A stretch of 64,000 nucleotides of DNA from Planctomycetota bacterium. Its GTDB lineage: Bacteria > Planctomycetota > B15-G4 > SIAN01. The position numbers were made by a program, and so were the translations under genes. The stretch lies in contig SIAN01000016.1 of NCBI GenBank assembly GCA_009691715.1, forward strand, positions 389 to 64,388, written 5' to 3'. Within the stretch, counting starts at the first letter, position 1. Each line of letters starts with the position of its first letter. Shown here piece after piece: positions 2,499 to 48,207 of this stretch. A model generated the notes under the pieces. It worked only from the letters and a program-made list of their open reading frames with translations. It did not search any database and was not told where the DNA came from.

Positions 2499-2510
2499 GG
2501 CGGCGGACGC

Positions 2511-2532
2511 TGCGGCGCCAGTATGGCGCGCA
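2511..2532 (+). promoter_or_regulatory. Bulged hairpin 12 nt after TGA 2496-2498 (candidate bacterial SECIS-like element)
   Basis: Hand-folded: 2511-2513 pairs with 2530-2532, bulged G2514, 2515-2519 pairs with 2525-2529, 5-nt loop AGUAU containing GU. Layout resembles the minimal E. coli fdhF SECIS as I remember it. Confidence 0.4.
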
Positions 2533-4602: not shown

Positions 4603-5766
4603 ATGGGACAGCGCAACTTCGATCCAGTCACGCGACGCGGCTTCCTCAAGGCAGGCGCGGCGATCGCGGGTGCCGCGGCGCTCCAAGGGCCGCTGCTTGG
4701 CGCTCTCGGACCGACGTCCTCCTCCAAGACCAAGCGCGTGCTTCTGGTGCTCTTTGCCGGCGGAGTCCGCAGCAAGGACACGATCGGCACGCCTGCGAAT
4801 GTCCCGAATCTGATGCGGCTCGCGGAGAAGGGCATCGTGTTGCCGAATTGCAGGTCGGCCAACCTCGGTCATTACGGCGCGTCGCTCTCGATCCTGACCG
4901 GGGTCCCGGAGTACATGGGGATCCGCGAGAACTCACGCGGCTACAACCCAACGATTTTCGAGTACGTCCGCAAGGAGCTGACGCTGCCTGCGAGCGGCGC
5001 GTGGCTGTCGGCGAACAATGGGTCGCAGGGAGTCAACTTCGCCTACGGTCTGAACCGGCAGTGGGGCGCCCCTTACGGCGCCAACGTCATCGACGGCGAC
5101 GGGATCTTCAACCAGGAGTTCCGAGAGGTCATCGGCCAGTTCGGGACGCCGCGCGCCGATTCGGCGAGTGACGCCGATGCGATGGCTCGGTTGCGTGGTG
5201 CGATCGAGCAGAAAGGCGACGGCAAGGCGGTGAACGACGAGGCGACCGCCGCGCGCGTCGAGAAGTACATCGTCGACGAACTGACCAAGAGTGAGACGGC
5301 AAGCCTTACCGGGCCGGGCGCGGGCGACGCCAAGGCGCTGCGCATCGCGGGGAACATCCTGCAGATCTTCAAGCCGACGCTCACGTGCGTCTCGCTCACC
5401 AACGCCGATGTCGCGCATGGCTCGTACAACGCTTACGTCGACGTCATCAAGCGCAACGACCAGGAACTTGGACGCATTCTCGACGCCGTGCAGCAGGACG
5501 CGGGGCTGCGCGACTCGACCTCGGTTTTCGTGGTACCTGAATTCGGTCGTGACAAGAACCTGAATCAGCGCAATGGTCTCGACCACGGCGACGGCTCCGA
5601 GGAGCTGAACAGGGTGGCCTGCGTCGCATGGGGCCCCGATTTCAAATCAGGGAAGACGATCACCACCGACTGCGACACCATTGACCTCTGCCCGACGATC
5701 TGTCGCATGCTCGGAGTCGAGGCGCCGCTGGCGCGTGGCAAGATCCTGCCGCGATTGCTCGGCTGA
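4603..5766 (+). CDS. DUF1501-like (sulfatase/alkaline-phosphatase superfamily) protein with twin-arginine signal
   Basis: GAGGAGG lies 7 nt before the ATG. N-terminus ..VTRRGFLKAGAAIAGAAALQG is a Tat motif. C-terminal ..NGLDHGDG.. is typical of DUF1501 (from memory). Confidence 0.75.
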   Translation: MGQRNFDPVTRRGFLKAGAAIAGAAALQGPLLGALGPTSSSKTKRVLLVLFAGGVRSKDTIGTPANVPNLMRLAEKGIVLPNCRSANLGHYGASLSILTGVPEYMGIRENSRGYNPTIFEYVRKELTLPASGAWLSANNGSQGVNFAYGLNRQWGAPYGANVIDGDGIFNQEFREVIGQFGTPRADSASDADAMARLRGAIEQKGDGKAVNDEATAARVEKYIVDELTKSETASLTGPGAGDAKALRIAGNILQIFKPTLTCVSLTNADVAHGSYNAYVDVIKRNDQELGRILDAVQQDAGLRDSTSVFVVPEFGRDKNLNQRNGLDHGDGSEELNRVACVAWGPDFKSGKTITTDCDTIDLCPTICRMLGVEAPLARGKILPRLLG

Positions 5767-5777
5767 GCGGCGCCACA

Positions 5778-8750
5778 ATGCGCCGGTTCTTGTTGCTGCT
5801 GCGTGCGCTCGCCGGTGTGCTCACTGTCGTCGCCGCGCTCGGAGGCGCGCTGTCACGGGCGTCGCTGGCGTCGCCGGCGATGCCGATTCAGGCAGGGCCG
5901 GAGGGCTGTCTGCAATGCCATGTAGGTATCGAGTCGATGCACCCTTGGCACGAGCTCTCCTGCACGGCGTGCCACGGCGGCGATGCGAAGGCGGTTCGCA
6001 AGGAGCAGGCGCACGTCCGCCCGCATGTCGCCCCGCCCCACGATGAGCGTCTGTTGCCGCGCGACTTCGACCCGGCTTGGGTGCAGTTCAAGAACCCGAG
6101 CGACCTGCGCATCGTCACGGGCACGTGCGGCGCGTGTCACACCGCGAGCTGCGAGGACCTGTTCAAGTCGCTCCACTGCACGACCGCCGGCCACCTGTCG
6201 GACGGCCTCTACGAGAACGGATTGACGAAGGAGCGGCGCACCCGCTACTCGATCTTCGCGGTGAAGGACGGCGATGGTCGCATTGGCCGGAACGGATTCG
6301 CGGAGTTTCCCGCCTTCCCCGCCAGCGACGACCGCGCGCGAAGTGGAGAGCTCGCCGGCCACGTCGCCGACCTCGGCCGCAAGAGCTGCATGCAGTGCCA
6401 TCTCTGGAGCAACGGCACCGCCGTTCGCGGGCGCCTCGGTCAGGACGGCAACTACCGCGGCAGCGGCTGTTCCGTCTGCCACGTCACCTACGCCGAGGAC
6501 GGCCTGTCGCGCAGTGACGACCCGACCGTCGATCGCTTCGAGCCTGGCCATCCGGAGCGCCACGCGATGGTCAAGGCGCCGCCGACTCAGACCTGCGTGC
6601 GCTGCCACTTCGGCGATGCCTCGATCGGGCTCAACTTTCGCGGGCTGGCGCAACTGGTCCCCGGGATGCCGGCGGGGCCCGAAGTGGCGGGCACGACGCA
6701 CGCATTGCAGAACGGCGTGTTCTATTCCAACGACCCGAAGGTGACGCCTCCCGACGTGCACCACGAGCGCGGCATGCACTGCGTCGACTGCCATACGGTG
6801 CGCGACGTGATGGGCGACGGCGAGCTCTACGGGTTCATGGAGCACGCGGTCGAGATCGAGTGCACCGACTGCCACGGCAGCTTCGATGAAGTGAGTCGCA
6901 TGACGACTTCCCGGGGTCGCAAGCTCGATCATCTGCACGCGAAGGACGGGTTGATCTGGCTCGAGTCGAAGGTGGACGGGAAGAGGCACTACATTCCGCA
7001 GGCCACCCATGTGATTGATCCCGCGCGCCCGGAGTTCAACGCGAAGGCCGCGCGCGCGATGACGCCGAAACACGCGCGGCTCGAGTGCTACACCTGCCAC
7101 GCCGGATGGAACGCCAACTTCCTTGGCTTCCACTTCGATCGCAATGAGTCGTTCTCGCAGCTCGACATCATCTCCGGCGAGCGCACCTCCGGCCGCTGCT
7201 CGACTCAGGAGAAGGTCTTCGCGACTTACCGGCAGTTCTACGTCGGGTGGAATGACGAGGGGATGGTGGCGCCCTATCTGGTCGGCTTCTCGACCATGGG
7301 GAGCGTGCACGGCCGTGACGGCGCGCTCTCCATCGATCAGGCGTTGCCGGTCACCGCGTCTGGAAAATCGGGCATGACCATGGTGCACCACCAGCTCCAT
7401 TCGACGCGTGGACAGGCGCGCGGCTGTGTCGAGTGCCACCGGTCGCCAGCGACGCTTGGCCTCGGTTCGCCGAGCTTTGGGCTCGCGCGCGAAGTCGCAG
7501 CGATCCTCGATGTCCGCGGCGTCCACCTCGTCGCCGTGGATCGCGAGGCGCTCGACGGATCGACGCCGCTCGCGTCCGTGCCGCTGTCCGGTGGAGTTGC
7601 CGTGGCGGCGCGCTGTGACGATCTGCAGGGACGATTCGAGACGCTCTACGTTGCGCTGCAGGGCGCGGGCATCGCCGTGATCGACGCACGTAAGCCGGCC
7701 TTTCCGGAAGTGATCGCCTTCATCGACTGCGACGACCCGCGCGATGTGCTTGTCCGCGGGGAGATGCTGTTCGTTGCCGACGGCAGGGGGGGCGTGAAGC
7801 TGTTCGATGTCGCCGATCCGCGCCGGCCGCGGCTGCTGGTTCGCCTGCCGACCAAGGAGGCGCGCTCGCTCGATCTCGCGTGGCCACACCTCTATGTCGC
7901 CGACGGCGCGGCCGGCATTAAAATCTTCGACGTCGCGACTCCCGGGAAGGTCGACCTTGCCGGCCACCTCGACCTGAACGGCGATCCCGGCTACGACGAC
8001 GACGCGCACGCGGTCAAGGTGATGTTCCAGTACTCACGGCCTGACGACGGTTTTGGTGAACGCAGCACGGCGCGCAAGTTGGCCGTCATCGCGGGCGGAT
8101 TGCAGGGCTACTTCTTGTTCGACGTGACCGAGGTCGGCGAGCCAGAACGGTTGTTCCCTCCGGGCGGAACGCCAATCCCGAGGACGACGACGGCTTCCCC
8201 GCCGGAGAGCACCAATCGAGTGCTCGACGTGCAGGTCTTGTCGCGGTTCGACCTCGGCAGCCCGGGCGGCGATATCCCGACTGAAGAACACGACTACGCG
8301 TTGTTCGCGGTGCAACCGCTCGAGGAGACGATGACCCCGGGGGCGCTCGCGATCGTGCGCATCACCGATCCCGAGGCGCCGAAGAGCGTCGCCGCCACGC
8401 CGATGCCTGACGGCGCTTTTCGCCTCGCAACGGCCGCGTGGTACCAACCGCCATTCCTCCGCCGCTACGCGCTCGTCGCCGGACGCAACGCGACGGCCGT
8501 CGTCGAAACCTCCGCGAGCGACAAGCCCGCCTTGGTCGGGACGCTGTTCGGCGAGGCGTTGCGCGTGCGCGACGTCGTGGTGGAGGAGTTTCCGCTCGAT
8601 CGGATGGTCGACGAGGCCGGCAAGACGCTGAAGGACATCTCCCACGAAGGGTCGCGGTATTTCGATCTCGCTGAGATCACGCGTCTTCTGCACGTCCCGC
8701 TCGCGGCGGAGGATCGTCTCGGGTTTCGCTTCGAGGAGGGCGGACGATGA
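5778..8750 (+). CDS. Secreted decaheme c-type cytochrome fused to C-terminal LVIVD-repeat (beta-propeller) domain
   Basis: Signal peptide. Ten CxxCH motifs (CLQCH, CTACH, CGACH, CMQCH, CSVCH, CVRCH, CVDCH, CTDCH, CYTCH, CVECH). Then repeats such as GGVKLFDVADPRRPRLL, AGIKIFDVATPGKVDL and GIAVIDARKPAFPEVI. Confidence 0.9.
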   Translation: MRRFLLLLRALAGVLTVVAALGGALSRASLASPAMPIQAGPEGCLQCHVGIESMHPWHELSCTACHGGDAKAVRKEQAHVRPHVAPPHDERLLPRDFDPAWVQFKNPSDLRIVTGTCGACHTASCEDLFKSLHCTTAGHLSDGLYENGLTKERRTRYSIFAVKDGDGRIGRNGFAEFPAFPASDDRARSGELAGHVADLGRKSCMQCHLWSNGTAVRGRLGQDGNYRGSGCSVCHVTYAEDGLSRSDDPTVDRFEPGHPERHAMVKAPPTQTCVRCHFGDASIGLNFRGLAQLVPGMPAGPEVAGTTHALQNGVFYSNDPKVTPPDVHHERGMHCVDCHTVRDVMGDGELYGFMEHAVEIECTDCHGSFDEVSRMTTSRGRKLDHLHAKDGLIWLESKVDGKRHYIPQATHVIDPARPEFNAKAARAMTPKHARLECYTCHAGWNANFLGFHFDRNESFSQLDIISGERTSGRCSTQEKVFATYRQFYVGWNDEGMVAPYLVGFSTMGSVHGRDGALSIDQALPVTASGKSGMTMVHHQLHSTRGQARGCVECHRSPATLGLGSPSFGLAREVAAILDVRGVHLVAVDREALDGSTPLASVPLSGGVAVAARCDDLQGRFETLYVALQGAGIAVIDARKPAFPEVIAFIDCDDPRDVLVRGEMLFVADGRGGVKLFDVADPRRPRLLVRLPTKEARSLDLAWPHLYVADGAAGIKIFDVATPGKVDLAGHLDLNGDPGYDDDAHAVKVMFQYSRPDDGFGERSTARKLAVIAGGLQGYFLFDVTEVGEPERLFPPGGTPIPRTTTASPPESTNRVLDVQVLSRFDLGSPGGDIPTEEHDYALFAVQPLEETMTPGALAIVRITDPEAPKSVAATPMPDGAFRLATAAWYQPPFLRRYALVAGRNATAVVETSASDKPALVGTLFGEALRVRDVVVEEFPLDRMVDEAGKTLKDISHEGSRYFDLAEITRLLHVPLAAEDRLGFRFEEGGR

Positions 8751-9994
8751 GCCGGTGGGCGCAGGCTGTGTCGTCTCTGGCGGTTGTGGCGCTCTTCGTC
8801 CCGTTGGCTTCGGCGCAGGCCGGCAGTGGTGCCGCGAAGCAGTTCCTTGCCAGCCTCGACCTTGACGGCAACGGCTACGTCGGCCGCGATGAGTGGAGCG
8901 GCAGCGGCGCGACGTTTGTCCTTCTCGACGTCGACCTCGACGGTTGGCTCACCGGTCCGGAGCTCACGAAGTCGACCAAGGCGGGCGCGCGCGCCGTCGA
9001 AGCTCCCGATCCGAGTCGCCTCGCGGTGGCGATCGGCGACCTGCCCGATCTCGTCGAGCCCTTCCGTCGCAGCTGCCTCGCCTGCCACGATCAGCAGCGG
9101 GTGGAGCGGGCGGCGAAGGACGCGAAGGGTTGGTCCGAGACCGTGCGCAAGATGCGTGAGAAGAAGGAGGCGTCGATCACGGAGAAGGACGCGCGCGCGA
9201 TCGTCGAGTGGCTTTCGGACCAACGCGCGCGGGTTGCGCTGTCGCTGGCAAGCTTCGGCACCGGCGATCCGGTCGGCGCGTGGGGCATGGTGATCGGCGG
9301 GGGCGACCTCCACTTGTTCGACCGCGACCGCAACGGAAAGCTCGAGGGTGGCGAGTTGGCGCGGCTGATCCACCAGCGCGCTGATCTCGACCGGGACCAA
9401 CTCCTGTCGCCGGGCGAGCTAGCGCTGCTGCCGCTCGCGGTCGACCGCCGCGCGCTGTTCCAGAAGCTCGATCGCGACAAGAACGGCGGAGTCAGCCTGA
9501 AGGAGCTCGGGATTCCAGCGCCGCTCCTCCAATTGTTCGACCGAAACGCCGACCAGCAGCTCGAGCGCGGCGAGCTGCCGAGTTCGCGCCGCTACGGCGG
9601 GCCGATCTCGATGATCCTGATCGGTGACGCGAAGACGGCGCTCGATCTCCTCGACCGGGATCACGACAAGAGCCTCTCCGCCGCCGAGCTCGCTCGCTTT
9701 CCGCGGACGCTCATGCGCTTCGACGGCGACAACAACGCCAGCCTCGATCCGAAGGAGCTTGAGACCGCGGTCACAGCTGGTCGTGCCGAAGGCCCTCTCG
9801 CGGCCTTCGACGACTTCTTCACCCGCTACGACCTCGACGGTGATGGCAGCGTCGCACGCCGCGAGTTTCCGGGTCGAGACGCCGCGTTCGCCCGCCTCGA
9901 TCTCGACGGCGACGGCGTGCTGACGTCGCGCGACGCGCAAGGCGGCATGACCCGAGTCGACTTCACGCCCGAGGCGTTGCGCTGGCGCGATTGA
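8747..9994 (+). CDS. Secreted multi-EF-hand calcium-binding protein with one c-type heme motif
   Basis: ATGA overlap with the upstream stop. Signal peptide (..LASAQAG). Ten DxDx(D/N)G..-type 12-residue loops (DLDGNGYVGRDE, DRDRNGKLEGGE, DLDGDGSVARRE...). One CLACH motif. Confidence 0.85.
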   Translation: MSRWAQAVSSLAVVALFVPLASAQAGSGAAKQFLASLDLDGNGYVGRDEWSGSGATFVLLDVDLDGWLTGPELTKSTKAGARAVEAPDPSRLAVAIGDLPDLVEPFRRSCLACHDQQRVERAAKDAKGWSETVRKMREKKEASITEKDARAIVEWLSDQRARVALSLASFGTGDPVGAWGMVIGGGDLHLFDRDRNGKLEGGELARLIHQRADLDRDQLLSPGELALLPLAVDRRALFQKLDRDKNGGVSLKELGIPAPLLQLFDRNADQQLERGELPSSRRYGGPISMILIGDAKTALDLLDRDHDKSLSAAELARFPRTLMRFDGDNNASLDPKELETAVTAGRAEGPLAAFDDFFTRYDLDGDGSVARREFPGRDAAFARLDLDGDGVLTSRDAQGGMTRVDFTPEALRWRD

Positions 9995-12675: not shown

Positions 12676-13035
12676 ATGACCATGTCTCCCCCGATCCTAG
12701 TCCTGGTCCAAGACCTCTTCTTCCGCGCGAAGATCGAGGCAACAGCGCGCGCTGGCGGTTGGCCGGTGTGGTGCGTGCACGATGTCGCGTCGTTGCCGGA
12801 CGCCGTCGCATGCCGGGCCTGTCTGATCGATCTCGAGTCGGCCGGTGCTGATGCGCTCGCGCGGTTGCCCGGGATCGCCGCGCGGGTGCCGACGATCGCG
12901 TTCGCGTCGCATGGCCGGATCGACCTGCTCGAAGCCGCGCGAGCAGCCGGTTGCCGCGAGGCGCTGCCGCGCTCGCGGCTCGCCGCCGAGCTTGCGCGCG
13001 TACTCGGTTCGCTCGCTGCAGGCGGCGATCCGTGA
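12676..13035 (+). CDS. Degenerate CheY-like receiver-fold protein
   Basis: ILVLVQD...CLIDLES...TIAFASHG... layout of a receiver domain with non-canonical acidic pocket and Lys. 119 aa. Confidence 0.55.
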   Translation: MTMSPPILVLVQDLFFRAKIEATARAGGWPVWCVHDVASLPDAVACRACLIDLESAGADALARLPGIAARVPTIAFASHGRIDLLEAARAAGCREALPRSRLAAELARVLGSLAAGGDP

Positions 13036-14174
13036 CCGCGACCCGATGGTCGACGGCGGTGGCGTTGGCCGCCGCTGGTGTCGTCGGGGGGTGCGCGAAG
13101 GGCTCGTCCGGCAGCTCGAGCGAGGGCGCGCCGTCGGTGGAGCATTCGCTCGCGGTTCCGGACGAGACTGCGCCATCGGCTGTCGCGCCGCCGCCTAGCG
13201 GTCCCGCTTCTTCGCCGCGCGGGCGCTTCGTCAACAGCGACGCCGAACCTTTTGCCTTCGCGGTCGAACCGGACTCGATCGAACTTGGCGTGCTGCGTCC
13301 CGATGAGGATTCGGACTGCGCGTTCGAGATCGTCAACCGCGACTCGCGCCCGCTGCGGCTCGTCAACATCGACGGATCCTGCGACTGCGTCGCGTTCGAA
13401 TACACCCGCGGTGACCTGCCACCGGGGACGCGCCGCAAGGTGGTGGTAAAGGTCAAGGCGGAGAATCGCGGCAACAAGGTGCTGACCGTGTTCGTGCAAG
13501 CGAACGATCGGGTCGTGACCACCCACGAATTGGCGATCCGATACTCGATCGAGCCCGCCCTCGTGTTCGAACCGCCGCGTGCCGACTTTGGCCAGCGGGT
13601 GATCGGTTCTCCCGGCCGTCTTGAGGTGCGCGTCCGCTATCGATTGCCGATCGGGTGCGAGCCACTGACGCTCGCGCCGAAGTGGGTGACTGAAGTCCCG
13701 GCGACGTTCGAGCTTGGCGGCGCACGAGCGGAGCCCTCGGGTGGCGGCCTGGTCGATTTCGATCAACCGCTCGTGCTCGTGCTCGAGGCGAGCCACGCGT
13801 TCAAGTCCTTCAAGTCGGAACTGCTCTTCGAGGGTGTCGGCCATCGCCGCTCGGCGCTTCCCGTGACCGGCTCCGTCCACGCCGAGACATGGCTCGATCC
13901 GGCGGAGCTTCACCTCGGAGTGACTGAGGTGGGAAAGCTTCGCCAGGGGGCCGTCCGGCTACGCTGGACCGTGGAGCCGGTGAATGCCGATGAGATCACC
14001 TGTTCCGTCCCGGAACTGAGGGCGCAGGCGTCGCCGGAACGCGGTGCGCGCGCCCTTCGGATCCAGGTCGAATTCGAGCCGAAGGTCTCTGGCGAGTTCG
14101 CCGGAGACGTCACGATCCGCACCAAGCAGGCAGAGGAACCTCTGGTCCTCCGCGTGCGCGCCAAGGTCCGCTGA
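13032..14174 (+). CDS. DUF1573-like (Ig-fold) lipoprotein, paralog 1
   Basis: GTG 13032 overlaps the upstream TGA (GTGA). Lipobox VVGGC. FEIVNRDSRPLRLVNIDGSCDCV resembles the DUF1573 signature (..N.G..PL.I..V..SCGC). Track start 12951 rejected. Confidence 0.75.
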   Translation: MTATRWSTAVALAAAGVVGGCAKGSSGSSSEGAPSVEHSLAVPDETAPSAVAPPPSGPASSPRGRFVNSDAEPFAFAVEPDSIELGVLRPDEDSDCAFEIVNRDSRPLRLVNIDGSCDCVAFEYTRGDLPPGTRRKVVVKVKAENRGNKVLTVFVQANDRVVTTHELAIRYSIEPALVFEPPRADFGQRVIGSPGRLEVRVRYRLPIGCEPLTLAPKWVTEVPATFELGGARAEPSGGGLVDFDQPLVLVLEASHAFKSFKSELLFEGVGHRRSALPVTGSVHAETWLDPAELHLGVTEVGKLRQGAVRLRWTVEPVNADEITCSVPELRAQASPERGARALRIQVEFEPKVSGEFAGDVTIRTKQAEEPLVLRVRAKVR

Positions 14175-14182
14175 GGAAAGAC

Positions 14183-15346
14183 ATGCGAATGCCCGGTTTG
14201 ATGCTCTCGGTGGCCGTGTTGGTCGCGGTGTCGCTCATTTCCGCAGGTTGCGACGAGCCCTCGCCGCGGTCGGCGACGCCGGCTTCAGTGGCGACGCCCG
14301 CATCTGCTGCGCCGACGGCCGTGGGCGATCCGGCAGCCGCGCGCGCTTCGCTGCCAGCTGCCCTGGTACCCGCCGGCGCCGAGCAAGGCGCCGGCGCGCC
14401 GGCGAAGCCCTGCTTCGAAGTGTCCCCGCCGGGTTTCGAGCTGAACGTCGTCGAGCAGAACTCGGTGCACGACCTCGAATTCTCCGTCATCAACTGCGGC
14501 GACCGGCCGTTCAACGTCGCCTACGTCACGACCGAGTGCAAATGCATGACGCTCGATGTCGACCGCGCGATGTTGAAGCGCGGCAACTCGGTGAAGGTCA
14601 AGCTGCGCGTCACGGCGACCGCCTCGAATGAGCGCAAGACGGCGGCGATCCTCCACCTCTCCGACCCGGCGAAGTCGAAGGTCCGAGTCGAAGTGCACTA
14701 CGCCGTCGTGCCTGAAATCCTGGTCGAGCCTCGCGGTGTCGGCTTCGGTCGGGTCGAGAGCGGCAAGACAGCCGAAGTCTCCTTGCGGGTGACGATGCAC
14801 CTGCCGGGGTCGATCAAGGAAATCCCGAAACTCGAGCCATTCATCGCCCATGACCTGCCGATCAAACTGAGATTCGACGAGCCGAGCATCACGACGTCGG
14901 CAGGCGGGATGCGCGACTGGGTGGCGACGCTCCATGTCGAGCTGGACGGGAAGGAGCCGATCGAGCAGTTCCTGACCCAGTTGGTGTTCAGGCCGACGGA
15001 GAATCTCACGTTCCGCGAACTCGCGGTGCGGGTGACCGGCGAAGTGGTGCCGGCTTGGTATTTCGAGCGCGGCGTCGTCGCGTTCGGCTCGGTCAGCGCC
15101 GGCGAGGCGGTCGAGAAGGAGATGCGTTTCTACTACCCCGGCCCCGAAGTACCCGCGGTGCTGTCCCTCGAGACTGACGTCGCCGGACTCGAGGTCACGA
15201 GCGCGCCGGACGCTGAGCAGCGCTGCCACGTGCTCAAGCTCAAGCTCGTCGCCAAGGAGTCGGGGAAGATCGAGGGGGTCGTGAAGCTGACCACCTCGCT
15301 CAGTTCGGAACCAGCGGTGCTGCGGATCACTGCACGCGCGAAGTGA
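14183..15346 (+). CDS. DUF1573-like (Ig-fold) lipoprotein, paralog 2
   Basis: Lipobox LISAGC. FSVINCGDRPFNVAYVTTECKCM. Alignable with 13032..14174. Confidence 0.8.
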   Translation: MRMPGLMLSVAVLVAVSLISAGCDEPSPRSATPASVATPASAAPTAVGDPAAARASLPAALVPAGAEQGAGAPAKPCFEVSPPGFELNVVEQNSVHDLEFSVINCGDRPFNVAYVTTECKCMTLDVDRAMLKRGNSVKVKLRVTATASNERKTAAILHLSDPAKSKVRVEVHYAVVPEILVEPRGVGFGRVESGKTAEVSLRVTMHLPGSIKEIPKLEPFIAHDLPIKLRFDEPSITTSAGGMRDWVATLHVELDGKEPIEQFLTQLVFRPTENLTFRELAVRVTGEVVPAWYFERGVVAFGSVSAGEAVEKEMRFYYPGPEVPAVLSLETDVAGLEVTSAPDAEQRCHVLKLKLVAKESGKIEGVVKLTTSLSSEPAVLRITARAK

Positions 15347-15926
15347 CCGGCGCAGTCTTGTTCGACGATCGACTCGACGATCGACTCGACGAACGATTCG
15401 ACGAGCTGCGGCAGGCATCTGCGGAATCGGAACAGACATCGGGACCTGAGCCGAATCGCTCAAGCGCGTCGAGTGGGCCGAGCGGGGCCGAGCCGGGCTC
15501 GACCGCCATGCGTTCGACGGGTGCTTGCATGGCGATTTCCTCGACGCCCGCGCGCGCAAGGTGCAGTCGAGCGATCGTCGACGCCTTTTGTGCTTCGATC
15601 TCCTGACGCAAGTCAGCGAGACGCGCTCGTCCTGACTCGACGGCCGCGAGCTCTGCGCGCACCGCGTCGACGGCGGATCGGCCCGCAAGCGTGCGCAGCG
15701 TCTCGACCGATTGATCGACGGCCCTCAGTGCCCGGTCGAGTTCGCGCTCGCGTTTCTCGAGTCGATCGTGCTCGCGCTCGAGGCTGCGGGTCCGGCTGAT
15801 GCGTTCGCCGTTCTCCGGAATCGCGTTGTGCGTCAGCGCGATCGGACAGCCGAGGCGACTGCGTACGCGTCCGACGAGGGCGAACGTCCCGACGAGGCCA
15901 AGGAAGAGCACCGTGCTGGCGCGCAT
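15327..15926 (-). CDS. N-terminally membrane-anchored coiled-coil protein with Ser/Arg-rich tail
   Basis: GGAG lies 8 nt before ATG 15926. TM MRASTVLFLGLVGTFALVG, then heptad-like Glu/Arg/Leu-rich region. High GC3. The 3' end overlaps the convergent gene by 20 nt. Confidence 0.7.
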   Translation of the reverse strand: MRASTVLFLGLVGTFALVGRVRSRLGCPIALTHNAIPENGERISRTRSLEREHDRLEKRERELDRALRAVDQSVETLRTLAGRSAVDAVRAELAAVESGRARLADLRQEIEAQKASTIARLHLARAGVEEIAMQAPVERMAVEPGSAPLGPLDALERFGSGPDVCSDSADACRSSSNRSSSRSSSRSSNKTAPVTSRVQ

Positions 15927-16004: not shown

Positions 16005-16865
16005 TCAGTCGCGGCCGACGATGACGACCTGGGGCGGCGGTTCGACCGCCGGACCGAGCAGTCTCGACAGCCGCTCCCGCACGTCGTTCGCTGCGGGCTC
16101 CGGAGAGTCGTAGTCGATGCCGGCCGGCTTGCCGCCTGCCGCGAGGCGCAGCCGTTCGTCGAGCAACCGACCCTTCACCTCGAGCTTGCCTTCGAACTTC
16201 GCGCAGAGTTGGCGGACCTCGCCGATCGCGGTCTGGAACTCCGCGACGTCGAAGTCGCCCGCGACAGCCTCGGCATAGATCTCCCGTGCTCGCTGCTTCT
16301 CCAGCTTCGCCGCGAGAAGGCGCAGCTTCCCGGTCAGCTCGCCGCGCAACGCTTCGCCGCGGACGACGTTCTCCTTCGCCAGCGCGAGGGCGCCGCGACG
16401 GACTTCGAGCGTCTGCCCCAGCTGCGCGAGCGTGTCCTGCTGCACGCCCCAGAGATCGAGCTTCTCGGCGACGTCGCGCTCGATCTGGGCGCGGGCATAC
16501 GAGCTGCCGCCGATCACGAAGCGTTCGCCGGCGGTGGCTAGGAGCGACTGCGCCTTCTCGAGGTTCTTCTTCAGCCGTTCGATCGCCTGCTGGCGGTCGC
16601 CTGACTCCTTCTCGAGGCGCTGGACCTCGACCTCTTCCGAGATTGAATGTTCGCGCAGTTCGCGGATTTCGGATTCGAGCGACTGCACGCGTGACTCGAT
16701 GCCATGCAGCTCGCCGCGCATGCCCTGGATCTCGTCGATCTTCGCGACGATCTCCTTCTTGCCCTGGTCGAACCAGGCGCACACCTGGTCCTTGCCGTAG
16801 AGGCAGCCGAGCGCGCCGACGCCGAGGCTGCCGAACACCAACGACTTGCCGAGAAACTTCAACAC
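16005..16865 (-). CDS. N-terminally membrane-anchored long coiled-coil protein (PspA/IM30-like character, unverified)
   Basis: GGAGG lies 8 nt before GTG 16865. TM LKFLGKSLVFGSLGVGALGCLYG, then about 230 aa of helical, charged repeats. Confidence 0.8.
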   Translation of the reverse strand: MLKFLGKSLVFGSLGVGALGCLYGKDQVCAWFDQGKKEIVAKIDEIQGMRGELHGIESRVQSLESEIRELREHSISEEVEVQRLEKESGDRQQAIERLKKNLEKAQSLLATAGERFVIGGSSYARAQIERDVAEKLDLWGVQQDTLAQLGQTLEVRRGALALAKENVVRGEALRGELTGKLRLLAAKLEKQRAREIYAEAVAGDFDVAEFQTAIGEVRQLCAKFEGKLEVKGRLLDERLRLAAGGKPAGIDYDSPEPAANDVRERLSRLLGPAVEPPPQVVIVGRD

Positions 16866-16893: not shown

Positions 16894-17265
16894 TCAACAG
16901 GTCTTCGATTCGGTCGTGGCCGGGTGGAGCGCCTGCGCGTGCGCGGTGCGCCAAGCGTCGGCGATCCCCCAGACCCACGGCACGATCAGCCAGCAAGTGA
17001 GGAGGACTGCGACGCCGCGCAGAGGCTGGCCGTTCAGCGCCTGTCCGGCGCCTGGCACCAGCGTTCCGGCTGCGGCGCGCAGCCACGGCGTCAGACGCGA
17101 GGCGGTCGCACGCGTGCCGTCGGCGCGCACGAGTTCGGCGCCGCAGTGCGGGCAGCCGATTGCGCGCGCGGCGAGGTCGGGCAGCCGCGCGCCGCAGCCG
17201 CGGCAGAACGGCATGAAGGCCGGCGCTTCCGCGAATCGAACCCATGCGAGTGGGGCGGCGAACAT
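16894..17265 (-). CDS. Zinc-ribbon membrane protein with PGxGQ..G...RG two-TM module
   Basis: ATG 17265 with GAGAAGGA upstream. CRGCG...CPHCG ribbon, then LVPGAGQALNGQPLRGVAVLL...GIADAW. Track extension to 17493 rejected (overlaps the upstream gene). Confidence 0.8.
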   Translation of the reverse strand: MFAAPLAWVRFAEAPAFMPFCRGCGARLPDLAARAIGCPHCGAELVRADGTRATASRLTPWLRAAAGTLVPGAGQALNGQPLRGVAVLLTCWLIVPWVWGIADAWRTAHAQALHPATTESKTC

Positions 17266-17291: not shown

Positions 17292-17891
17292 TCAGCGGCG
17301 CGTCTCGTGGGCGAGGAGGAGGCTCGCGGCGATGCCGCCGAGTGGGACCAGCAGTTCGCGCGGAGCGGCTGCGAAGCCGCCATGCGTCGTGAGCGTGATC
17401 GCGATGACGCCGAGGCCGATGAGCAGGAAGAGCACGTCGTCGGCTCGTGCGCCACCGGTGCTGACCGCGACGCCCTTGCCGGTCTCCGCGCAACGGAACG
17501 CGTCAAAGAGGCCGAAGACGTATAGGTAGGCGCCGAGCAACGGCGTCATGAACGGTGCGTCGCGCAACATCAGCGCTGCACCGAAGAGGCCGGCACCGCG
17601 CATCACGCGACCGGTGTAGGCCTGACCGAGGCCGGGCACGATCGAGAGCGCGGCGGCGAGCCACCTGCTGCGCGCGTGCGCGCGTGGCGCGACGCCATCG
17701 ACCGGCACCGCAACCGCTGCGCCCGCCGCCGTGACGAACACTGCCGGTTCGGGGTGGAGCGTCGACCTGCAGCTCACGCAGAAGTTGCGAACGCCGTCGA
17801 GCGCGCGGCAGCTCGGGCAGAGATGCAGGCCGCAGCGAACGCAGCGCGCGATCGCTTCCACCGCCGGATGGGTCGCGCAAACGAAGGTCAC
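17292..17891 (-). CDS. B-box-like zinc-finger membrane protein with PGxGQ..G...RG two-TM module plus extra TM segments
   Basis: GGAGG lies 7 nt before GTG 17891. CATHP..CVRCG..CPSC....CVSC, then SIVPGLGQAYTGRVMRGAGLF...GLFDAF. Confidence 0.8.
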   Translation of the reverse strand: MTFVCATHPAVEAIARCVRCGLHLCPSCRALDGVRNFCVSCRSTLHPEPAVFVTAAGAAVAVPVDGVAPRAHARSRWLAAALSIVPGLGQAYTGRVMRGAGLFGAALMLRDAPFMTPLLGAYLYVFGLFDAFRCAETGKGVAVSTGGARADDVLFLLIGLGVIAITLTTHGGFAAAPRELLVPLGGIAASLLLAHETRR

Positions 17892-17953: not shown

Positions 17954-17968
17954 TCAACGCGCGTGCCA
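17954..17968 (-). promoter_or_regulatory. Near-consensus sigma54 (-24/-12) promoter for the 17891..15327 operon
   Basis: Minus strand reads TGGCACGCGCGTTGA versus consensus TGGCACG-N4-TTGC (one mismatch, A for C). Lies in the 207-nt gap after the kinase gene, about 60 nt upstream of GTG 17891. Confidence 0.6.
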
Positions 17969-18098
17969 CCTCGCAGATCCCGCAAGCGCCGCGTCATCGC
18001 TGGCGCAACCGACTGAGAAGAAAGCAGTTGCGGCACCGACTTCGTCTGCCGTCGCTGCCGCCCGCGAGCGCTCTCCGCGGCCGCTTTCCGTACGGTCG

Positions 18099-20102
18099 TC
18101 AGCTTTCCTGACGGCGGATCGAAGGCGGTGGTGGTGCCAGTCGGGCGGTGGCGGCTTCGTGCAGCCCGAACTCGTCGCGACGTCGCCGCGCGGTCTTGTG
18201 CGCCAACACTGTCGCCACGACCCACGCGGCCAGCGCCAGTTGCGATTCGTCGCTGGCGAACAGGGTCAGCGTGCCAGCCAGGAACGCGATGCCGAGCATC
18301 GGGCGTCCGGCGTAGATCAGCCCTGCGCCCGGCACGATCGACCAGCGCAGTGCACGACCAGGGTTCGGCGGGACGCCGATGCCGGGAGGCGCTGAGAGGA
18401 ATGGACGTGGACGCTGCGCCGTGAAGCAGAGCGCGCCGACCAGACCGTCGTGCAGCGGACGCCGAAACGCCGACATCCGGCCGAGCAGTTCGAGCACCAG
18501 GAGCCACGCGATGCCGACGCCACTGAAGGATTGGAACGACGGCGTCGCAGTGAGCCAGCCCGATTCGGAGGCGACGTGGGCGACGCAGTGCGACAGTGCT
18601 GGTGCGAGCAACAGCACGCCGGGAGCTACCAGGAGCGTGCGCGTCGCGGCGCGTAGGACGCCGAGATCGCTACCGTCGCGCCGGCAGAGTCGCAGGCGGA
18701 GCCACTGCCGCCCGATGGTCCGGCCGCCACGCACGTCCGCGGCGACGTAGTAGAGGAGCGCCGCCCCGACGGTCGCGAGGGCGAGCGCCATCGCCTGGGT
18801 TGGGGCACCGACCGGCAATTCGGGTGCCATCAGGCGCGCCGCCAACGACCCGGCCAGGGTCGGCGCGCCAACGAGGACACTGCCGGCCACAAGCAGCAGG
18901 TGCGACAGGAATTCGATCGCGAGAAGGTCGATGAGGAAAGCGAACCCGCGCCGCCACACGCCCGCCGGCTCGAGCACGAACTCGGTCGTCGCTTCGTGCG
19001 GCAGCATGTAGGTCGTTCCGCCGTGCTGCACGCGGCGCAACGGCGGATCAGCGCCGCCGATCGGGTCATTCCCGGCGGCGACCCGCTCCAAGTCCTCGAT
19101 CAGCGCCGCGTGGGTCTGGTAGCGCTGCTCCGGTTCCTTCTGCAGCAGCCGATGCACGATGCGCTCGAGACCGGGCGCGACTGCGGCATTGCGCGTCCGC
19201 AGCGGGAGCGGATCTTCGCGAAGGTGCTTCATGATCACCGCGACGGGCGACTCCGCTTCGTGGGGAGGAGCGCCGCCGAGCACGTGATAGAGGGTCGCGC
19301 CGAACGCGTAGAGGTCGGCACGATGGTCGACGCGGTCGCCGCGTCCCTGCTCCGGCGCCATGTAGTGAGGCGTGCCGAGGATCTCGCCGGTCACGGTCAC
19401 GCGTGACTGCGAGTCGACGGCCTTCGCGAGACCGAAATCGGCGACCTTCACGGTTCCGGCTGCCGTCAGCAACACGTTGCCCGGCTTGATGTCACGATGG
19501 GTGATGCCGAGTTCTGCGGCGGCGAGGAGGCCGCGGACCGCCTGGAGAGCAATCGGCACGATGTTGTCGGGACGCAGCACGCCCCGCTGAGCAGCGGCGA
19601 GCAGGTCCTCGCCTTCGACCAGCTCCATGGCGATCCAAGGCGTCGTGCCGTCGACGCCCGCATCGATGACTTTCACGATGTTCGGATGGTGCAGGGCCGC
19701 GGCGGCGCGCGCCTCGCGTTGGAATCGCGAAATGAAGTCAGGGCGTGATTGCAATCCCGGATGCAGCAGCTTGAGCGCGACCTCGCCGCCACTGCGGGTA
19801 TCGAGTGCGCGCCAAACGCTGCCCATCCCGCCTTGGCCGAGCATGCTGCGGAGCTCGAACGGACCGACCCGATGCGTCTCACGCGGGCCGAGCACCGCAG
19901 TTGCAATACTGCCGGTGGAGCGCGGCGGGGACGCAACGGGCGCTGCGGCGGGCCCTGAGGCGGGCGCGGGCGGTGCGCCGGCGCCGACGTGGGGCACGAC
20001 GCTCCGTTCGCAGCAGGTCGGGCAGGTCACGTCGCGAGTTGCGGCGTCGACCGTCAGCAGCCGGCCGCAGCGGCAGAAGAAGCGCGTCTGTCCCGTCGTC
20101 AC
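18099..20102 (-). CDS. Zn-ribbon / Ser-Thr protein kinase / RDD-domain membrane protein
   Basis: GTG 20102 overlaps the activator TGA (GTGA). [54 protein letters not shown]-type TM region. C-terminal [16 protein letters not shown]. Track start 20528 rejected. Confidence 0.9.
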
Positions 20103-21973
20103 GCGTCCGGCTCGAGACCGAACGCCTTGATCTTCTCGTAGAGCGTGATGCGGGCGACGCCGAGGATTTCCGCTGCCCGGGTCTTGTTCCAACCGGTCGC
20201 CGCCAGCACGGCACGGACGTGCTCCTTCTCCATCACTTCGAGCGAGACGAGCCGGCGCTCGACCCAGGGCGACGCTCGGTCTCCGGATGCGGCGGCGAGT
20301 CCGAGGTCCCCCTCCTCGATCTGCGGCCCTGCTGCGAGCAGCAGCGCGCGCTCGAGGGCGTTTCGCAATTCGCGCACGTTGCCAGGCCATGCGTGGCGGC
20401 GGAGTCGATCGAGCGCGCCGGGCGCCAGCGGCAGAACCGCGCGGCCCGATCCGCGCGCAAGCTCGAGAAGGAGCCAGGGCGCCAGCTCTTCGAGATCGGC
20501 GAGCCGTTCGCGCAGCGGCGGCGCGCACACTTCGACGACCTTCAGTCGGAACAGGAGGTCGGTCCGGAACGCGTCCTTGCGGCAGAGCGCGTCAAGATCG
20601 CGGTGCGTCGCGGCGACGAAGCGGACGTCGACGCGAACCTCTTCGCTCCCGCCGACACGGAAAAAGCGCTTCTCTTCGAGCAGCCGCAGCAGCATCACCT
20701 GGACGTCCGTCGGAAGTTCGCCGATCTCATCGAGGAAGAGCGTGCCGCCATGCGCCAGCTCGACCAGCCCGATTCGGCGCTGGGTCGCGCCCGTGAACGC
20801 GCCCTTTTCGTGTCCGAACAGTTCGCTGCTCACCACATTCGAGGGAAGCGCGCCGCAGTTCACTGCCACGAACGGTGCGCTGCCGCGGGCGCTCTGCTCG
20901 TGGATTCCGCGCGCCACCAGCTCCTTGCCCGTTCCGCTCTCTCCGGTGATGAGCACGGTTGCGTCGACGGTCGCTGCCTTGGTCACCATCGCGCGCAGCC
21001 GCTGCATCGACTCCGAACCGCCGATCAGCTGGCGTTGCGGCGCGGACTCTCGCAGATGCTCGTTCTCGCGTGCGAGACTCTCCTTCTCCCTGCGCGCGTC
21101 GGCGGCGAGGCCGACCTGGTGCGCTGCGGCGGAGAGGAACGAGATCTCGTCGAGGCCGATCGGGGCGGCGAGGCTTCTTGCTGCGACGTAGAGCACGCCG
21201 ACACGGCCGCGCAACGGGATCGGCGCGCACGCGATGCGGACGCTTCGCGCTGCGACGATGCTCTTGGCACCCTTGAGCTCGGGTTCCGACTGCACGTCGT
21301 TCGCGAGGACCGCCTGGCCGTTCGCGAGCACGCGGCGCACGACGGTCATGCTCCACGGCGGCGGCGTCCCGGACTTCGCGTGCGACGCCACGGCGGCGAG
21401 TACGAATGGGGCGCCTTTCGCCGGCCGCGGTCCGATCAGCACATGACCGTCATCGAACGGCAACGTGTCGAGCAACGTCTTGAGCGCGCCATGGAGGACG
21501 GCGCCAACGTCGGTCGAATCGCCAACCACGCGCAGGATGCCGTAGAGCGCCCGCAGATGGCGCGCGCTCGATTCCGGGGACAGGCTCGCCGGCGGGTACG
21601 CGGAGTTCGCCGCGTCGATCGCGAGTTCGATCTCCTCCGGTCCGATCGCGCAGGTCTTGTACGCCTCGGGCGCCGCCTCGTGTGCCTCGACCCGCAGCAC
21701 GAGGCGCCCGATCACGATCGTGTCGCCGTCCTTCAGCCGCGCGCCGTGGATCCGTGAGCCGTTGACGAAGGTGCCGTTGGTCGAGTGGAAGTCGGAAATC
21801 GCGAGGAGCTCGCCGTCGGGGCGCACTTCGCAATGCAGTCGCGACGCGCCCTCCTCGTCGAGGACGACTTCGCATTCAGGTGCTCGGCCCAGCCGCAGCG
21901 AACGGTCGACTTCGACCGCGCGACGTTCGCCTTGCGCGTCGGTCCAGACCAGATCGAGGCGCGCCGCTGCCAC
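20099..21973 (-). CDS. FHA-GAF-AAA+ sigma54-dependent transcriptional activator (Fis-type HTH)
   Basis: GGAGGG lies 5 nt before GTG 21973. FHA ([29 protein letters not shown]). GESGTGKE Walker A. GAFTGA sigma54-contact motif. C-terminal HTH ([21 protein letters not shown]). Confidence 0.92.
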
Positions 21974-21974
21974 G

Positions 21975-22502
21975 TCATCCCTCCGCGTGCGGGCGCGGCA
22001 GCGGGGGGTCGGCGCGGTCGCGGGGCGCGAATGCGACGGCCGACTCGACTTTGTGCATGCCGGCCGGCAGGAGTCGCCAGTAGCGCAGCTCGTCGCCGAG
22101 TGCCGAGCGCAGCTCGTCGAACAGGTCGAGCTCCGCCTCGCCGTGGAACAGCCGGATCGCGCAGCCGTCCGCGCCGACGTGGGTCACTTCCATGAACAGC
22201 ATGTCAAGCATGCGCGCGAGGTAATGGGTCCGCTGCATCCATGGCGGCACGCGTGCATCGCCAATGGGCTGGCGAACGCGGGCCAGCATCGGCACCGGGA
22301 TCCACGGTTCACCGCGGCTTTGCGGCAGGTAGACCTTCGCGCGGTCCTTGCGGGCGTCGAGGACCAGGCCGAACTCGTCGGGGAGCTTCAGCGCATCGCG
22401 GTAGGCGGCGTCGCGGCAGATCACGACATCGCCGACGCGCGCGAGCAGGGCGTTCGTCTCGTTGCTCATCGCCGCGGGAGCATACGGGCTCGCGGCGTCC
22501 AC
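21975..22502 (-). CDS. Hypothetical protein
   Basis: ORF track 175 aa, high GC3, co-directional and tightly packed. Start uncertain (GTG 22502 or ATG 22469). No family recognised. Confidence 0.6.
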   Translation of the reverse strand: MDAASPYAPAAMSNETNALLARVGDVVICRDAAYRDALKLPDEFGLVLDARKDRAKVYLPQSRGEPWIPVPMLARVRQPIGDARVPPWMQRTHYLARMLDMLFMEVTHVGADGCAIRLFHGEAELDLFDELRSALGDELRYWRLLPAGMHKVESAVAFAPRDRADPPLPRPHAEG

Positions 22503-25924: not shown

Positions 25925-26500
25925 ATGCCAGCGTCGAAGAAGCCGACCCTGCGGCGAATGGTCGTCTACCTCTCAGCGGTCGTGCTGTTCGTCGTCGCGC
26001 ACCCGACGCGCCCGCTCTTCTACGTTGGCTGCGGCCTCGCCCTGGCAGGGGAGTTCCTGCGGATCTGGGCGTTCGGCCACCTGCGCAAGAACCAGGCGGT
26101 GATCCAGAGCGGCCCCTATCGGCACGTGAAGAACCCGGCCTATCTCGGGACCTTTCTGATCATGGTGGGTGTCTTCCTCTGCGCCAGCGACGGGGCGCCC
26201 GGCACCCCCAGCCGCTACCTCCTGATCGTGATGCTGCCGCTCGCGCTCGGCGTCTTCTTCTTCTACTACCTCCCGCACAAGTTCCGGGTGGAGGGCGGGC
26301 GCCTGCGCCGCCGCTTCGGCTCGACCTGGGACGAGTACGACCGGCGGGTGCCTGACTTCATCCCGAGCCCGTGGCCGCGGGTCGCCGCCGACGGACGCTG
26401 GGACGCGGCGCTGGTCCGCGAGAACAGCGAAGTGAGTGCCGCCATGCTGGTCGTCGCGAGCCTCGTGCTGCTCGGGAGCAAGCTCCTTTTCCTGAGGTGA
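25925..26500 (+). CDS. Isoprenylcysteine carboxyl methyltransferase (ICMT)/phospholipid methyltransferase family membrane protein
   Basis: Multi-TM. ..GPYRHVKNPAYLG.. and ..EGGRLRRRFGSTWDEY.. motifs. Track start 25280 rejected (antisense to the lipoprotein gene). Confidence 0.75.
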   Translation: MPASKKPTLRRMVVYLSAVVLFVVAHPTRPLFYVGCGLALAGEFLRIWAFGHLRKNQAVIQSGPYRHVKNPAYLGTFLIMVGVFLCASDGAPGTPSRYLLIVMLPLALGVFFFYYLPHKFRVEGGRLRRRFGSTWDEYDRRVPDFIPSPWPRVAADGRWDAALVRENSEVSAAMLVVASLVLLGSKLLFLR

Positions 26501-26510
26501 GCGCCGCAGC

Positions 26511-27236
26511 GTGGTAGCGAACGCCGACTCGCCGACAGCTGCCTCGGACCCACACCCGACCCGCGATGCCATTGGCCGCTCTCCGCAGCGGCTGCTCCAC
26601 CCGGGCAGCGCGACCAAGGCGGCGATCGTCGTGGTCGAGGGGCCGGAAGGTCCGCGCCTCATGAAAGACGTCTCGGTGATGCACCCGCTTGTCCGGGCGA
26701 TCTACGGGCGGCGTGTCCTCCGCCGGGAGGAACGCGCGCTAACAGCACTGGACGGGATGGAGGGGGTGCCAAAGCTCTATGGGCGAATTGACGGTGACGC
26801 GTTGCTGATGGAGTTCATCACTGCCGAGACCCTGCGCCGCCAGTTCGACAAGTCGCGCCTGACCAAGGCGTGCGTCGCGCTGGCCGATCGGGTGGCGTCA
26901 TTGCACGGACGCGGCGTCGTCCACCTCGACTTGCGCCAGAAGCGCAACGTGCTGGTCGACGCCGAGGGTGGCGTCGTCATCATCGACTTCCAGTCGGCGC
27001 TGGTGCTCGGCCATTCGGGTTGGCGTGGACTCCTGCTGCGATTGCTTGCGCCACTCGATCGGATGGCGGTCCTCAAGCACCGGGCTCGCTACGTCCCCGA
27101 AAGTCTCGACGCCAACGACCAGAAGCGCGCGCGGCGCCTGCACCGACTCGGCCAGCTCTGGTTCTTTCACCGACTCGGGCCGCTGCTGCGCGCATTGTTT
27201 GGTGGTTCGCGCAGACGATCGCAGCGCTCGCCTTGA
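26511..27236 (+). CDS. Lipopolysaccharide (Kdo/WaaP)-type or RIO-like small kinase
   Basis: Kinase-like core: ..LMKDVS.., HGRGVVHLDLRQKRNVLVD, VVIIDFQSA. Confidence 0.65.
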   Translation: MVANADSPTAASDPHPTRDAIGRSPQRLLHPGSATKAAIVVVEGPEGPRLMKDVSVMHPLVRAIYGRRVLRREERALTALDGMEGVPKLYGRIDGDALLMEFITAETLRRQFDKSRLTKACVALADRVASLHGRGVVHLDLRQKRNVLVDAEGGVVIIDFQSALVLGHSGWRGLLLRLLAPLDRMAVLKHRARYVPESLDANDQKRARRLHRLGQLWFFHRLGPLLRALFGGSRRRSQRSP

Positions 27237-33487: not shown

Positions 33488-33963
33488 CGCGGGCCGTGCG
33501 TGCGGAGCGCATCTGCATGGCGCGCTCGCGAGTGCGATGGCACGGACCGCTGCCGCCAACGCTGCGTTCGTCGAGCGTCCGGTCTGCGTCCGAAAGTCGT
33601 TACCAGTAAACAGGTTGCGGCTGGCGATTGGCAGTTTCGAAGCCGCTGCCGACGCAACTGGCGGTCGGCACACCCTTTGTTTCTTCGGGCGCGAACCCCG
33701 AGGCGGTCGGAGTCGGCCTCGCGAATGGATCGGTTCAGGCAAGCCCGGTTCCTTTGCGGCAACGGGGCTTGGTTCTCGCTGAGGGGTTCATTGAAACGAA
33801 TCGCTGACTGGCCGGGTCGCTCGCTCGGACGCCCGCGAGCGTCCCGCCGGGCGCTTTGCCTGCAACCACCGCTCAGCTTCGCGGCCCCGTCGCGCGCTTC
33901 GAGCCAATGAACGGTCGCGCTCGCCTCAGGGGTACGCGCGCTCATCCCCCGTAGGAGCACCCC

Positions 33964-36698: not shown

Positions 36699-36801
36699 CG
36701 GCCTTCGGGCGACGGCCCGATTGCGTCGGGTGGCGGATTCCGGAAGATCGGGGCATGAGCCCGGTCAGATCGGCTCCACCATCGCGCGAGGGACGCCTCT
36801 C

Positions 36802-48116: not shown

Positions 48117-48207
48117 GGAGGCTGATCGCGTCGAGTGTGCCGGCTCTGCCAACCGTTCGAACCGTGCCGACCGTCCGCGAAGATCGTGCGCAGAGGGAGA
48201 GGCACCG

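Follow-up and report, generated by a model that had tools for sequence, protein, structure and literature searches.

Transcription activators of the sigma-54 type that contain an FHA domain have been catalogued for two decades. Such FHA-containing enhancer-binding proteins (EBPs) were reportedly described in Myxococcus xanthus by Jelsbak, Givskov and Kaiser in 2005 (PNAS volume 102, page 3010; cited in PMC4320627). Like the activator analysed here, the Myxococcus proteins carry an N-terminal FHA domain on a sigma-54 AAA+ module, and a link from Ser/Thr kinases to sigma-54 was proposed for them. A dedicated cognate kinase encoded in the same operon, an enhancer and a target operon are, to our knowledge, not defined for them, and in the literature searched we found neither an experimentally defined kinase-to-FHA-EBP pathway nor, for any FHA-EBP, a defined cognate kinase, docking site, enhancer and regulon. 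In Mycobacterium tuberculosis, the genes of the membrane Hanks kinase PknH and of the FHA-containing activator EmbR are neighbours, and it is through the FHA domain that the kinase phosphorylates EmbR (PMC6213207). Here we analyse a stretch of 64,000 nucleotides from a Planctomycetota bacterium (GenBank assembly GCA_009691715.1, contig SIAN01000016.1, positions 389 to 64,388 of the forward strand; hereafter the window), in which the gene of an FHA-GAF-sigma54 activator is preceded by a small gene, X, and followed by the gene of a membrane-embedded Hanks-type Ser/Thr kinase (STK) and by four further genes, A to D. In this locus we find intact catalytic and binding residues, strict linkage of the genes, and conserved promoter-like and enhancer-like motifs. 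The reading that we regard as probable is that X, the EBP and the kinase are the sensor and switch, and A-B-C-D the output, of a self-contained signalling cassette of a small uncultured Planctomycetota clade.

The first-pass annotation of the window, made from the sequence alone, had proposed that the activator and the kinase belong together, and the two genes are indeed found side by side in each of the 14 related loci that were recovered from metagenome-assembled genomes (MAGs) of Planctomycetota and from metagenomes. Among the MAGs with the cassette are GCA_016795285.1, GCA_028289345.1 and the bin of an 86-kb contig. For 7 of the 7 kinase homologues that were looked up, the FHA-GAF-sigma54 activator lies directly upstream and four genes (about 200, 120, 288 and 175 aa) lie downstream, and the order EBP-kinase-A-B-C-D is strict in all eight kinase-anchored loci. 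An independent metagenome scan with gene C returned 12 loci, 12 of which contain A-B-C-D, and every one of them with enough upstream sequence also has the kinase and the activator. Different genes are present further upstream in the most divergent loci (L003 and L084; L numbers are our handles for loci), which delimits the cassette. No FHA-sigma54 activator is located next door in any of 79 unrelated STK loci (mostly Planctomycetota), and homologues of X, A, B, C and D are likewise absent from all 79. These control loci were obtained from a contig scan with the full kinase alignment, which picked them up by generic kinase motifs and returned one true family member besides.

Both genes of the pair lie on the minus strand exactly where the first-pass annotation had placed them (see table), and the overlap that it had pointed out is present as a GTGA at 20099-20102, formed by the activator stop TGA (20101-20099) and the kinase start GTG (20102-20100). 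The same 4-nt overlap occurs in L001, L003 and L086 and the other loci have gaps of 8-13 nt; that is, the two genes overlap or are at most 13 nt apart in loci with called gene coordinates. Both start codons are supported by the N-termini of homologues, which start at the same residues, and with third-position GC at 0.82-0.84 in the two frames the gene models are sound.

Pfam searches agree with the domains that had been named for the two proteins (FHA, GAF, sigma-54, kinase and RDD). In the activator, the FHA domain spans residues 27-89 (E 1.8e-17) and is followed by GAF/GAF_2 (155-290), Sigma54_activat (316-482, E 1.7e-67), AAA_lid_14 and the Fis-type helix-turn-helix HTH_8 (578-618, E 5.6e-13). 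The AAA+ domain retains Walker A, Walker B and the sigma-54-contacting GAFTGA loop, with LFLDEIGE invariant in 6 orthologues. The FHA domain had been suggested to act as a phosphothreonine reader, and the residues predicted to form such a pocket are all intact and invariant in the same orthologues: R30 of the GR motif, S44 and H47 of S44-R-x-H47, and N66 of S-T-N66-G-T. Invariant in this set, too, is T106, situated just past the FHA domain in the motif [YFL][KR]-T-[CT]-x-[IV]. The solved structures closest to the FHA domain are Rv0020c (FhaA), Rv1747, GarA, OdhI and EmbR in the PDB, all of them known partners of Hanks kinases, with E values from 2e-11 to 1e-8 for the PknB partners GarA, FhaA and Rv1747; the domain aligns residue for residue with Rv0020c and Rv1747. 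A search with the FHA-GAF N-terminus retrieved mostly generic FHA proteins and missed the full-length orthologues, and revealed FHA-GAF modules joined to other outputs, namely HD-GYP, SpoIIE and histidine kinase.

The activator scores under every NCBIfam equivalog cutoff. The best of these models is NifA (TIGR01817) with 345.8 bits against a cutoff of 528.85, and with its extra FHA domain and a context that is not nif, the activator is not a NifA. As the window protein is far under the NifA cutoff and lacks nif context, the JGI label 'Nif-specific regulatory protein' carried by two fragments of orthologues (P0121 and P0122) is an over-annotation.

The kinase matches Pkinase at residues 83-334 (E 2.7e-42) and, as had been annotated, has an RDD multi-transmembrane (TM) region (PF06271, 379-552, 41.8 bits against a gathering cutoff of 24.1) of about 4 TM helices. 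An alignment of 17 full-length homologues, which are 41-69% identical, shows that the glycine-rich loop (G89/G91/G94), K111, E130, the catalytic loop H202-R-D-x-K-x-x-N209, D222-F-G and P250-E of the APE motif are invariant, so that nothing in these motifs points to a catalytically dead protein, and by them the kinase is predicted to be an active RD-type Hanks Ser/Thr kinase. Also invariant are T236 and T238 in the activation loop, T363 and T364 in the juxtamembrane segment (G-x-T363-T364-Y), and R384, R385, D392 and D456 in the RDD region. The N-terminal CxC...CxxC ribbon of the earlier description is borne out by the same alignment, with C27 and C30 invariant and C10 and C12 conserved in at least 90% of sequences, and is modelled as four short strands by AlphaFold2 (AF2). 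At the other end of the protein, a C-terminal TM hairpin with the motif S-x-x-PG-x-G-x-x-Y-x-G is followed by the tail RRQES. The AF2 model of the kinase part superposes on M. tuberculosis PknB with 39-42% identity, the top structure being the PknB-GarA complex, and PknA is also near. The FHA domain of the activator and the kinase domain are thus each nearest to the mycobacterial STK/FHA partner set, which argues for the proposed cassette. The kinase does not belong to the Stk1/PknB PASTA kinases (NF033483), for which it scores 314 bits against a cutoff of 450, with the match confined to the kinase domain and the PASTA repeats absent.

With about 24 full-length homologues in 5.8 billion clusters, the kinase belongs to a small family, of which the named members come from Planctomycetes MAGs. 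In three Myxococcota MAGs (L010, L018 and L028), tblastn matches of the kinase do not stop at the kinase domain but continue into RDD, as far as query residues 491-519, which indicates that kinase-RDD fusions exist in Myxococcota too; these loci have no adjacent FHA-EBP and no A-D genes. RDD has been reported to contain an intramembrane binding site that faces the cytoplasm, and fusions with VanZ and with histidine kinase are reported as well (PMC12419801). A Hanks kinase-RDD fusion with a zinc ribbon and a hairpin was not described in the literature searched.

It is improbable, in our judgement, that the genes are merely co-expressed, with the FHA domain reading some other phosphoprotein or aiding oligomerisation, the kinase acting on X or on A-D, and the GAF domain serving as the true input of the activator. 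The strict 1:1 pairing of FHA-EBP and kinase, with translational coupling, across sequences that are only 41-69% identical speaks against such an arrangement, as do the full conservation of the phosphothreonine-binding residues and the invariance of pT-x-x-[ILV] motifs in the kinase. It would nevertheless accord with the usually pleiotropic nature of bacterial STKs (PMC6213207), with the control of NifA/NorR-type EBPs by GAF alone, with the FHA-GAF modules found on HD-GYP, SpoIIE and histidine kinase outputs, and with the membrane module that the kinase has in common with A and B.

This TM module had been noticed in the first-pass annotation as one shared between the C-terminus of the kinase and the genes downstream, and profile comparisons bear it out. 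In hhalign, the kinase C-terminus matches gene A with a probability of 97% (E 9e-11), its match to gene B is weaker (51%, E 1.5e-4), genes A and B match each other (98%, E 2e-14), and the coiled-coil genes C and D, taken as controls, yield nothing with the kinase C-terminus; HMMER cross-matches among the kinase, A and B agree with hhalign. For the zinc ribbons of the kinase and of gene B, hhalign gives a probability of 8% (E 0.0045), and the gene B hidden Markov model touches the kinase ribbon. Orthologues of gene B have weak Pfam matches to DUF5683, DUF6677 and TM2. An exhaustive search of 1.84 billion representative proteins places gene A in a narrow family, with only about 10 members at E<=1e-10, and adds about 100 more distant small proteins with zinc finger and hairpin. 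Gene D closes the conserved A-B-C-D block in every locus, and its copy in the window has a Ser-rich C-terminal extension. The identity of the coiled-coil genes with PspA/Vipp1 was considered and rejected: PF04012 (PspA/IM30) is absent from the Pfam matches of C and D at E<=0.1, and a profile of 8 gene C orthologues run against PDB sequences matched nothing but generic coiled coils, PspA and Vipp1 not among them.

The genes downstream of the kinase had been called target genes, and a positionally conserved sigma-54-type promoter does precede them. A single GG[CT]ACG-N4-TTGN motif is present in the 64-kb window, and each family locus likewise has one, apart from one stray match. It always lies on the coding strand in the spacer between the kinase and gene A, 51-83 nt from the start of gene A in the 8 loci where the distance was measured, and in L092 takes the form GGCATC-N4-TTGA with the same spacing. 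Only this block and the palindrome block described below stand out in the spacer, whose conservation is otherwise poor (mean column identity of 42% in 8 loci). Relative to the consensus used (TGGCAC-N5-TTGCW, with the -24 GG and the -12 GC 10 nt apart), the -24 GG and -12 TTG stand at exact sigma-54 spacing, conserved in 14 loci. It is very unlikely that GGCACG-N4-TTG(A/T) is instead a repressor operator or an RNA element, with the targets of the activator elsewhere in the genome. Such a reading could draw on the -12 element, which has the canonical GC in none of the loci, and on a scan of the window with the sigma-54 consensus at 2 mismatches, which is not enriched over shuffles. But no other block of the spacer is invariant, and this one has precisely the -24/-12 geometry, and sits on the right strand at the right distance from gene A with a dyad site 80-150 bp upstream. 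Moreover, no sigma-70-like promoter was found in a scan of 14.5-25.5 kb, where a terminator scan also gave nothing notable, and the 64-kb window contains no Rfam family at the gathering threshold and no tRNA gene.

The dyad site is the palindrome CGTCAG-N5-CTGACG. In the window, about 138 bp separate its centre from the -24 GG downstream; in other loci, the distance is about 80-150 bp. The perfect palindrome has one match in the 64-kb window, and among 87 fetched loci it is found only in family members, at the same spot; the remaining family loci have it with 1-2 mismatches at the same position. A third half-site-like repeat beside it is kept as CGT[AC][CA]GGAA or TGTCAGGA in 8 of 8 aligned loci. 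NtrC sites have the same 6-N5-6 geometry. Both the geometry and the distance of the palindrome are as expected of an enhancer for an HTH_8 activator, and we consider it a candidate site. Over kinase codons 663-667 and the stop codon, the arms of the palindrome encode the near-invariant tail RRQE(S/T), whose Ser/Thr codon sits in the spacer and varies (AGC, TCC or ACC). In L084, whose kinase ends in RREE, about 100 nt separate the stop codon from the repeat downstream. Because the repeat is non-coding there and the kinase tail differs, conservation of the palindrome is at least partly at the DNA level, which suggests that a DNA-binding site constrains the C-terminus of the kinase.

One metagenomic lineage contains a natural disruption of the cassette. 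In L097 (4496-6835; also L098:1-1536), about 2.3 kb are inserted between the kinase stop codon and the sigma-54-type promoter, parting the candidate enhancer from the promoter, and the insert holds a 346-aa transposase-like open reading frame (L097:5627-6667).

Features of the cassette in the window (positions of the 64,000-nt stretch)
Feature	Position	Strand	Description
Gene X	21975..22469	-	164 aa, cytosolic, first cassette gene; stop 1 nt before EBP start; open frame reaches GTG 22502
Sigma-54 activator (EBP)	20099..21973	-	GTG start; 624 aa; FHA - GAF - AAA+ (GAFTGA) - HTH_8
Hanks-type Ser/Thr kinase	18099..20102	-	GTG start; 667 aa; Zn ribbon - kinase - RDD - C-terminal TM hairpin
Palindrome CGTCAG-N5-CTGACG, candidate enhancer (upstream activating sequence) for HTH_8	18097..18113	.	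Spacer GAAAG; overlaps kinase R-Q-E-S codons and TGA
Third half-site-like repeat CCGTACGGAAAGC	18083..18095	-	Direct repeat of CCGTCAGGAAAGC 19 nt upstream
Sigma-54-type promoter GGCACGCGCGTTGA	17954..17967	-	-24 GG, -12 TTGA; 76 nt upstream of gene A start
Gene A	17292..17891	-	199 aa; B-box-like Cys/His zinc finger, PGLGQAY-GR TM hairpin, more TM helices, tail AHETRR
Gene B	16894..17265	-	123 aa; CxxC...CxxC zinc ribbon, PGAGQ-NG TM hairpin
Gene C	16005..16865	-	286 aa; N-terminal hydrophobic anchor, then long conserved coiled coil
Gene D	15327..15926	-	199 aa; N-terminal signal/anchor (MRAST..FL), then coiled coil

Taken as a signalling route, the cassette would work as follows. The membrane kinase would detect a membrane or envelope cue through the RDD region and the TM hairpin and, by analogy with PknB-type kinases, autophosphorylate on T236/T238 and possibly on T363/T364. 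The FHA domain of the activator would then dock on phosphothreonine, for which three candidates fit pT-x-x-[ILV]: kinase T238 (T-G-E-I/V), kinase T364 (T-Y-x-L) and activator T106 (T-C/T-x-I/V). Docking, phosphorylation or both may relieve or impose FHA-GAF control of the AAA+ ring, with the GAF domain as a possible second input. The active oligomer would bind the 6-N5-6 palindrome and drive open complex formation by sigma-54 RNA polymerase at GGCACG-N4-TTGA, leading to expression of A-B-C-D. Because A and B carry the TM hairpin of the kinase, the output probably feeds back on the sensor, and A and B may, speculatively, act on the kinase in the membrane through this common hairpin.

A bolder form of this feedback, which we rate as rather unlikely, would have the kinase be, in effect, a zinc-finger/TM-hairpin protein of the gene B/A type into which a Hanks kinase and an RDD region were inserted. 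A and B would then assemble in the membrane with the homologous hairpin of the kinase and reset the kinase, in a closed loop of Psp-like envelope homeostasis run by Ser/Thr phosphorylation and the FHA-EBP in place of partner sequestration, and the tail RRQES would be largely a by-product of an enhancer placed in the last kinase codons, i.e. of dual coding.

The sign of the switch could also be the reverse. We doubt, though, that the kinase is a negative regulator that, when phosphorylated, tethers the activator at the membrane by FHA-phosphothreonine contact, so that transcription follows once the kinase is off or dephosphorylated. The anatomy of the cassette would be the same in both models, and the sequence does not distinguish the sign. 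The N-terminal domains of many EBPs repress the AAA+ ring and PspA controls PspF by membrane or partner sequestration, both of which would suit such a tether, as would the position of the docking motifs at T363/T364 next to the membrane domain. The invariant T106 of the activator, on the other hand, fits a phosphorylation-driven change at least as well.

Several observations weigh against the view of a self-contained kinase-to-sigma-54 cassette. The phospho-coupling of kinase and FHA domain is drawn from gene linkage and from knowledge of the families. AF2 models both the TTY segment and the RRQES tail as short beta-strands, with medium to low confidence, and the invariance of both may therefore be structural (that of RRQES also DNA-driven) and not a sign of phosphosites. 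No PP2C phosphatase adjoins the cassette, and gene X is absent from one locus (L084). The -12 element is TTGA or TTGT in 14 of 14 loci and never canonical TTGC, and with its C replaced by A or T throughout, sigma-54 dependence is not certain; this departure could reflect lineage-specific RpoN recognition or a deliberately weak fork-junction element. The gene rpoN was not found within the 64-kb window, which is only part of the genome; planctomycetes do possess rpoN (R. baltica RB6491; PMC2754498).

Gene X is located upstream of the EBP in L001, L002, L003, L087, L090, L094 and L097. Its 26 homologues are all annotated as 'hypothetical' and have no Pfam match, and the family is clade-restricted. 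AF2 predicts an N-terminal SH3/KOW-like barrel and an alpha/beta domain with high confidence (pLDDT 90.6, pTM 0.86). A fold search with this model gave no PDB match with E<0.03 and no whole-chain match, and the barrel gave no functional clue.

Among the other genes of the window, two paralogous genes of DUF1573/HYDIN-like Ig-fold proteins (12951-15346, plus strand) are convergent with gene D and are followed in other loci by a LysM gene. As they adjoin the cassette in the most divergent loci too (L003, L084 and L085), the pair may be functionally linked to it. The PP2C-type gene nearest to the cassette, encoding a HAMP-SpoIIE membrane phosphatase (47950-49902, plus strand), lies 28 kb away. 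Near kdsB, and not adjoining the cassette, is a small RIO/Kdo-like kinase-fold gene (26496-27236, plus strand); L002 has a similar 242-aa gene with a weak Pkinase match (890-1618). At 5685-9994 (plus strand), the gene of a 1021-aa multihaem cytochrome c-like protein (Cytochrome_C7/c3) precedes that of a 439-aa protein with a haem-binding motif and several EF-hand calcium-binding motifs, which is an unusual pairing. Large open reading frames with no Pfam match are present at 33955-36126, 36631-38313, 1280-2011 and 2499-3167.

With a single kinase, FHA-EBP, candidate enhancer, promoter and four-gene operon standing one to one within 7 kb, the locus makes the long-proposed route from a Ser/Thr kinase to sigma-54 directly testable. 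The cassette also provides a first functional handle on RDD as the sensor module of a Hanks kinase, as well as a handle on the widespread and unstudied small membrane proteins with a zinc finger and a PGxGQ hairpin, and its systematic -12 TTGA/TTGT may inform sigma-54 promoter recognition in Planctomycetota.

The first-pass annotation had regarded the architecture as one not known to be characterised, and the literature searched contains no description of an FHA-GAF-EBP paired with a zinc-ribbon/kinase/RDD protein. The general idea of a Ser/Thr kinase acting on an FHA transcription factor has precedents and is known in principle; what is uncharacterised is this particular architecture and the cassette around it. 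Outside the family, an unrelated 442-aa FHA-Sigma54_activat protein, for which no GAF or HTH match was recorded, is encoded divergently to a 915-aa Pkinase-TPR gene (L100:1123-5350), and this pair indicates that wiring of a kinase to an FHA-EBP recurs in other lineages. Compared with the FHA-EBPs of Myxococcus, the cassette activator adds a GAF domain, comes from another phylum and is paired with an RDD-type membrane kinase.

PknH-EmbR resembles the cassette in that a kinase and an FHA transcription factor are encoded by adjoining genes, and EmbR is among the PDB matches of the activator FHA domain. However, EmbR is a SARP/BTAD protein of the sigma-70 type with a C-terminal FHA domain and without AAA+, sigma-54 dependence or GAF, and PknH has an extracytoplasmic sensor where the cassette kinase has RDD. 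The cassette is thus not of the PknH-EmbR type, as its activator is an AAA+/HTH_8 protein that matches EmbR in the FHA domain alone. Among solved structures, both halves are nearest to PknB with GarA, FhaA and Rv1747, where the FHA domain docks on activation-loop or juxtamembrane phosphothreonines, but these partners are metabolic, cell-wall or transporter regulators and not transcription activators, and PknB senses by PASTA repeats. PspF/PspABC is similar to the cassette in having a sigma-54 activator, a neighbouring operon of small membrane and coiled-coil proteins, and feedback by its products. The likeness is functional only, since PspF has no sensory domains, the input of the cassette is a Ser/Thr kinase, and neither C nor D showed a sequence relationship to PspA/Vipp1 in the searches made. 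Finally, NifA, NorR and FhlA have the GAF - AAA+ - HTH_8 core in common with the cassette activator, to which the cassette adds the FHA domain.

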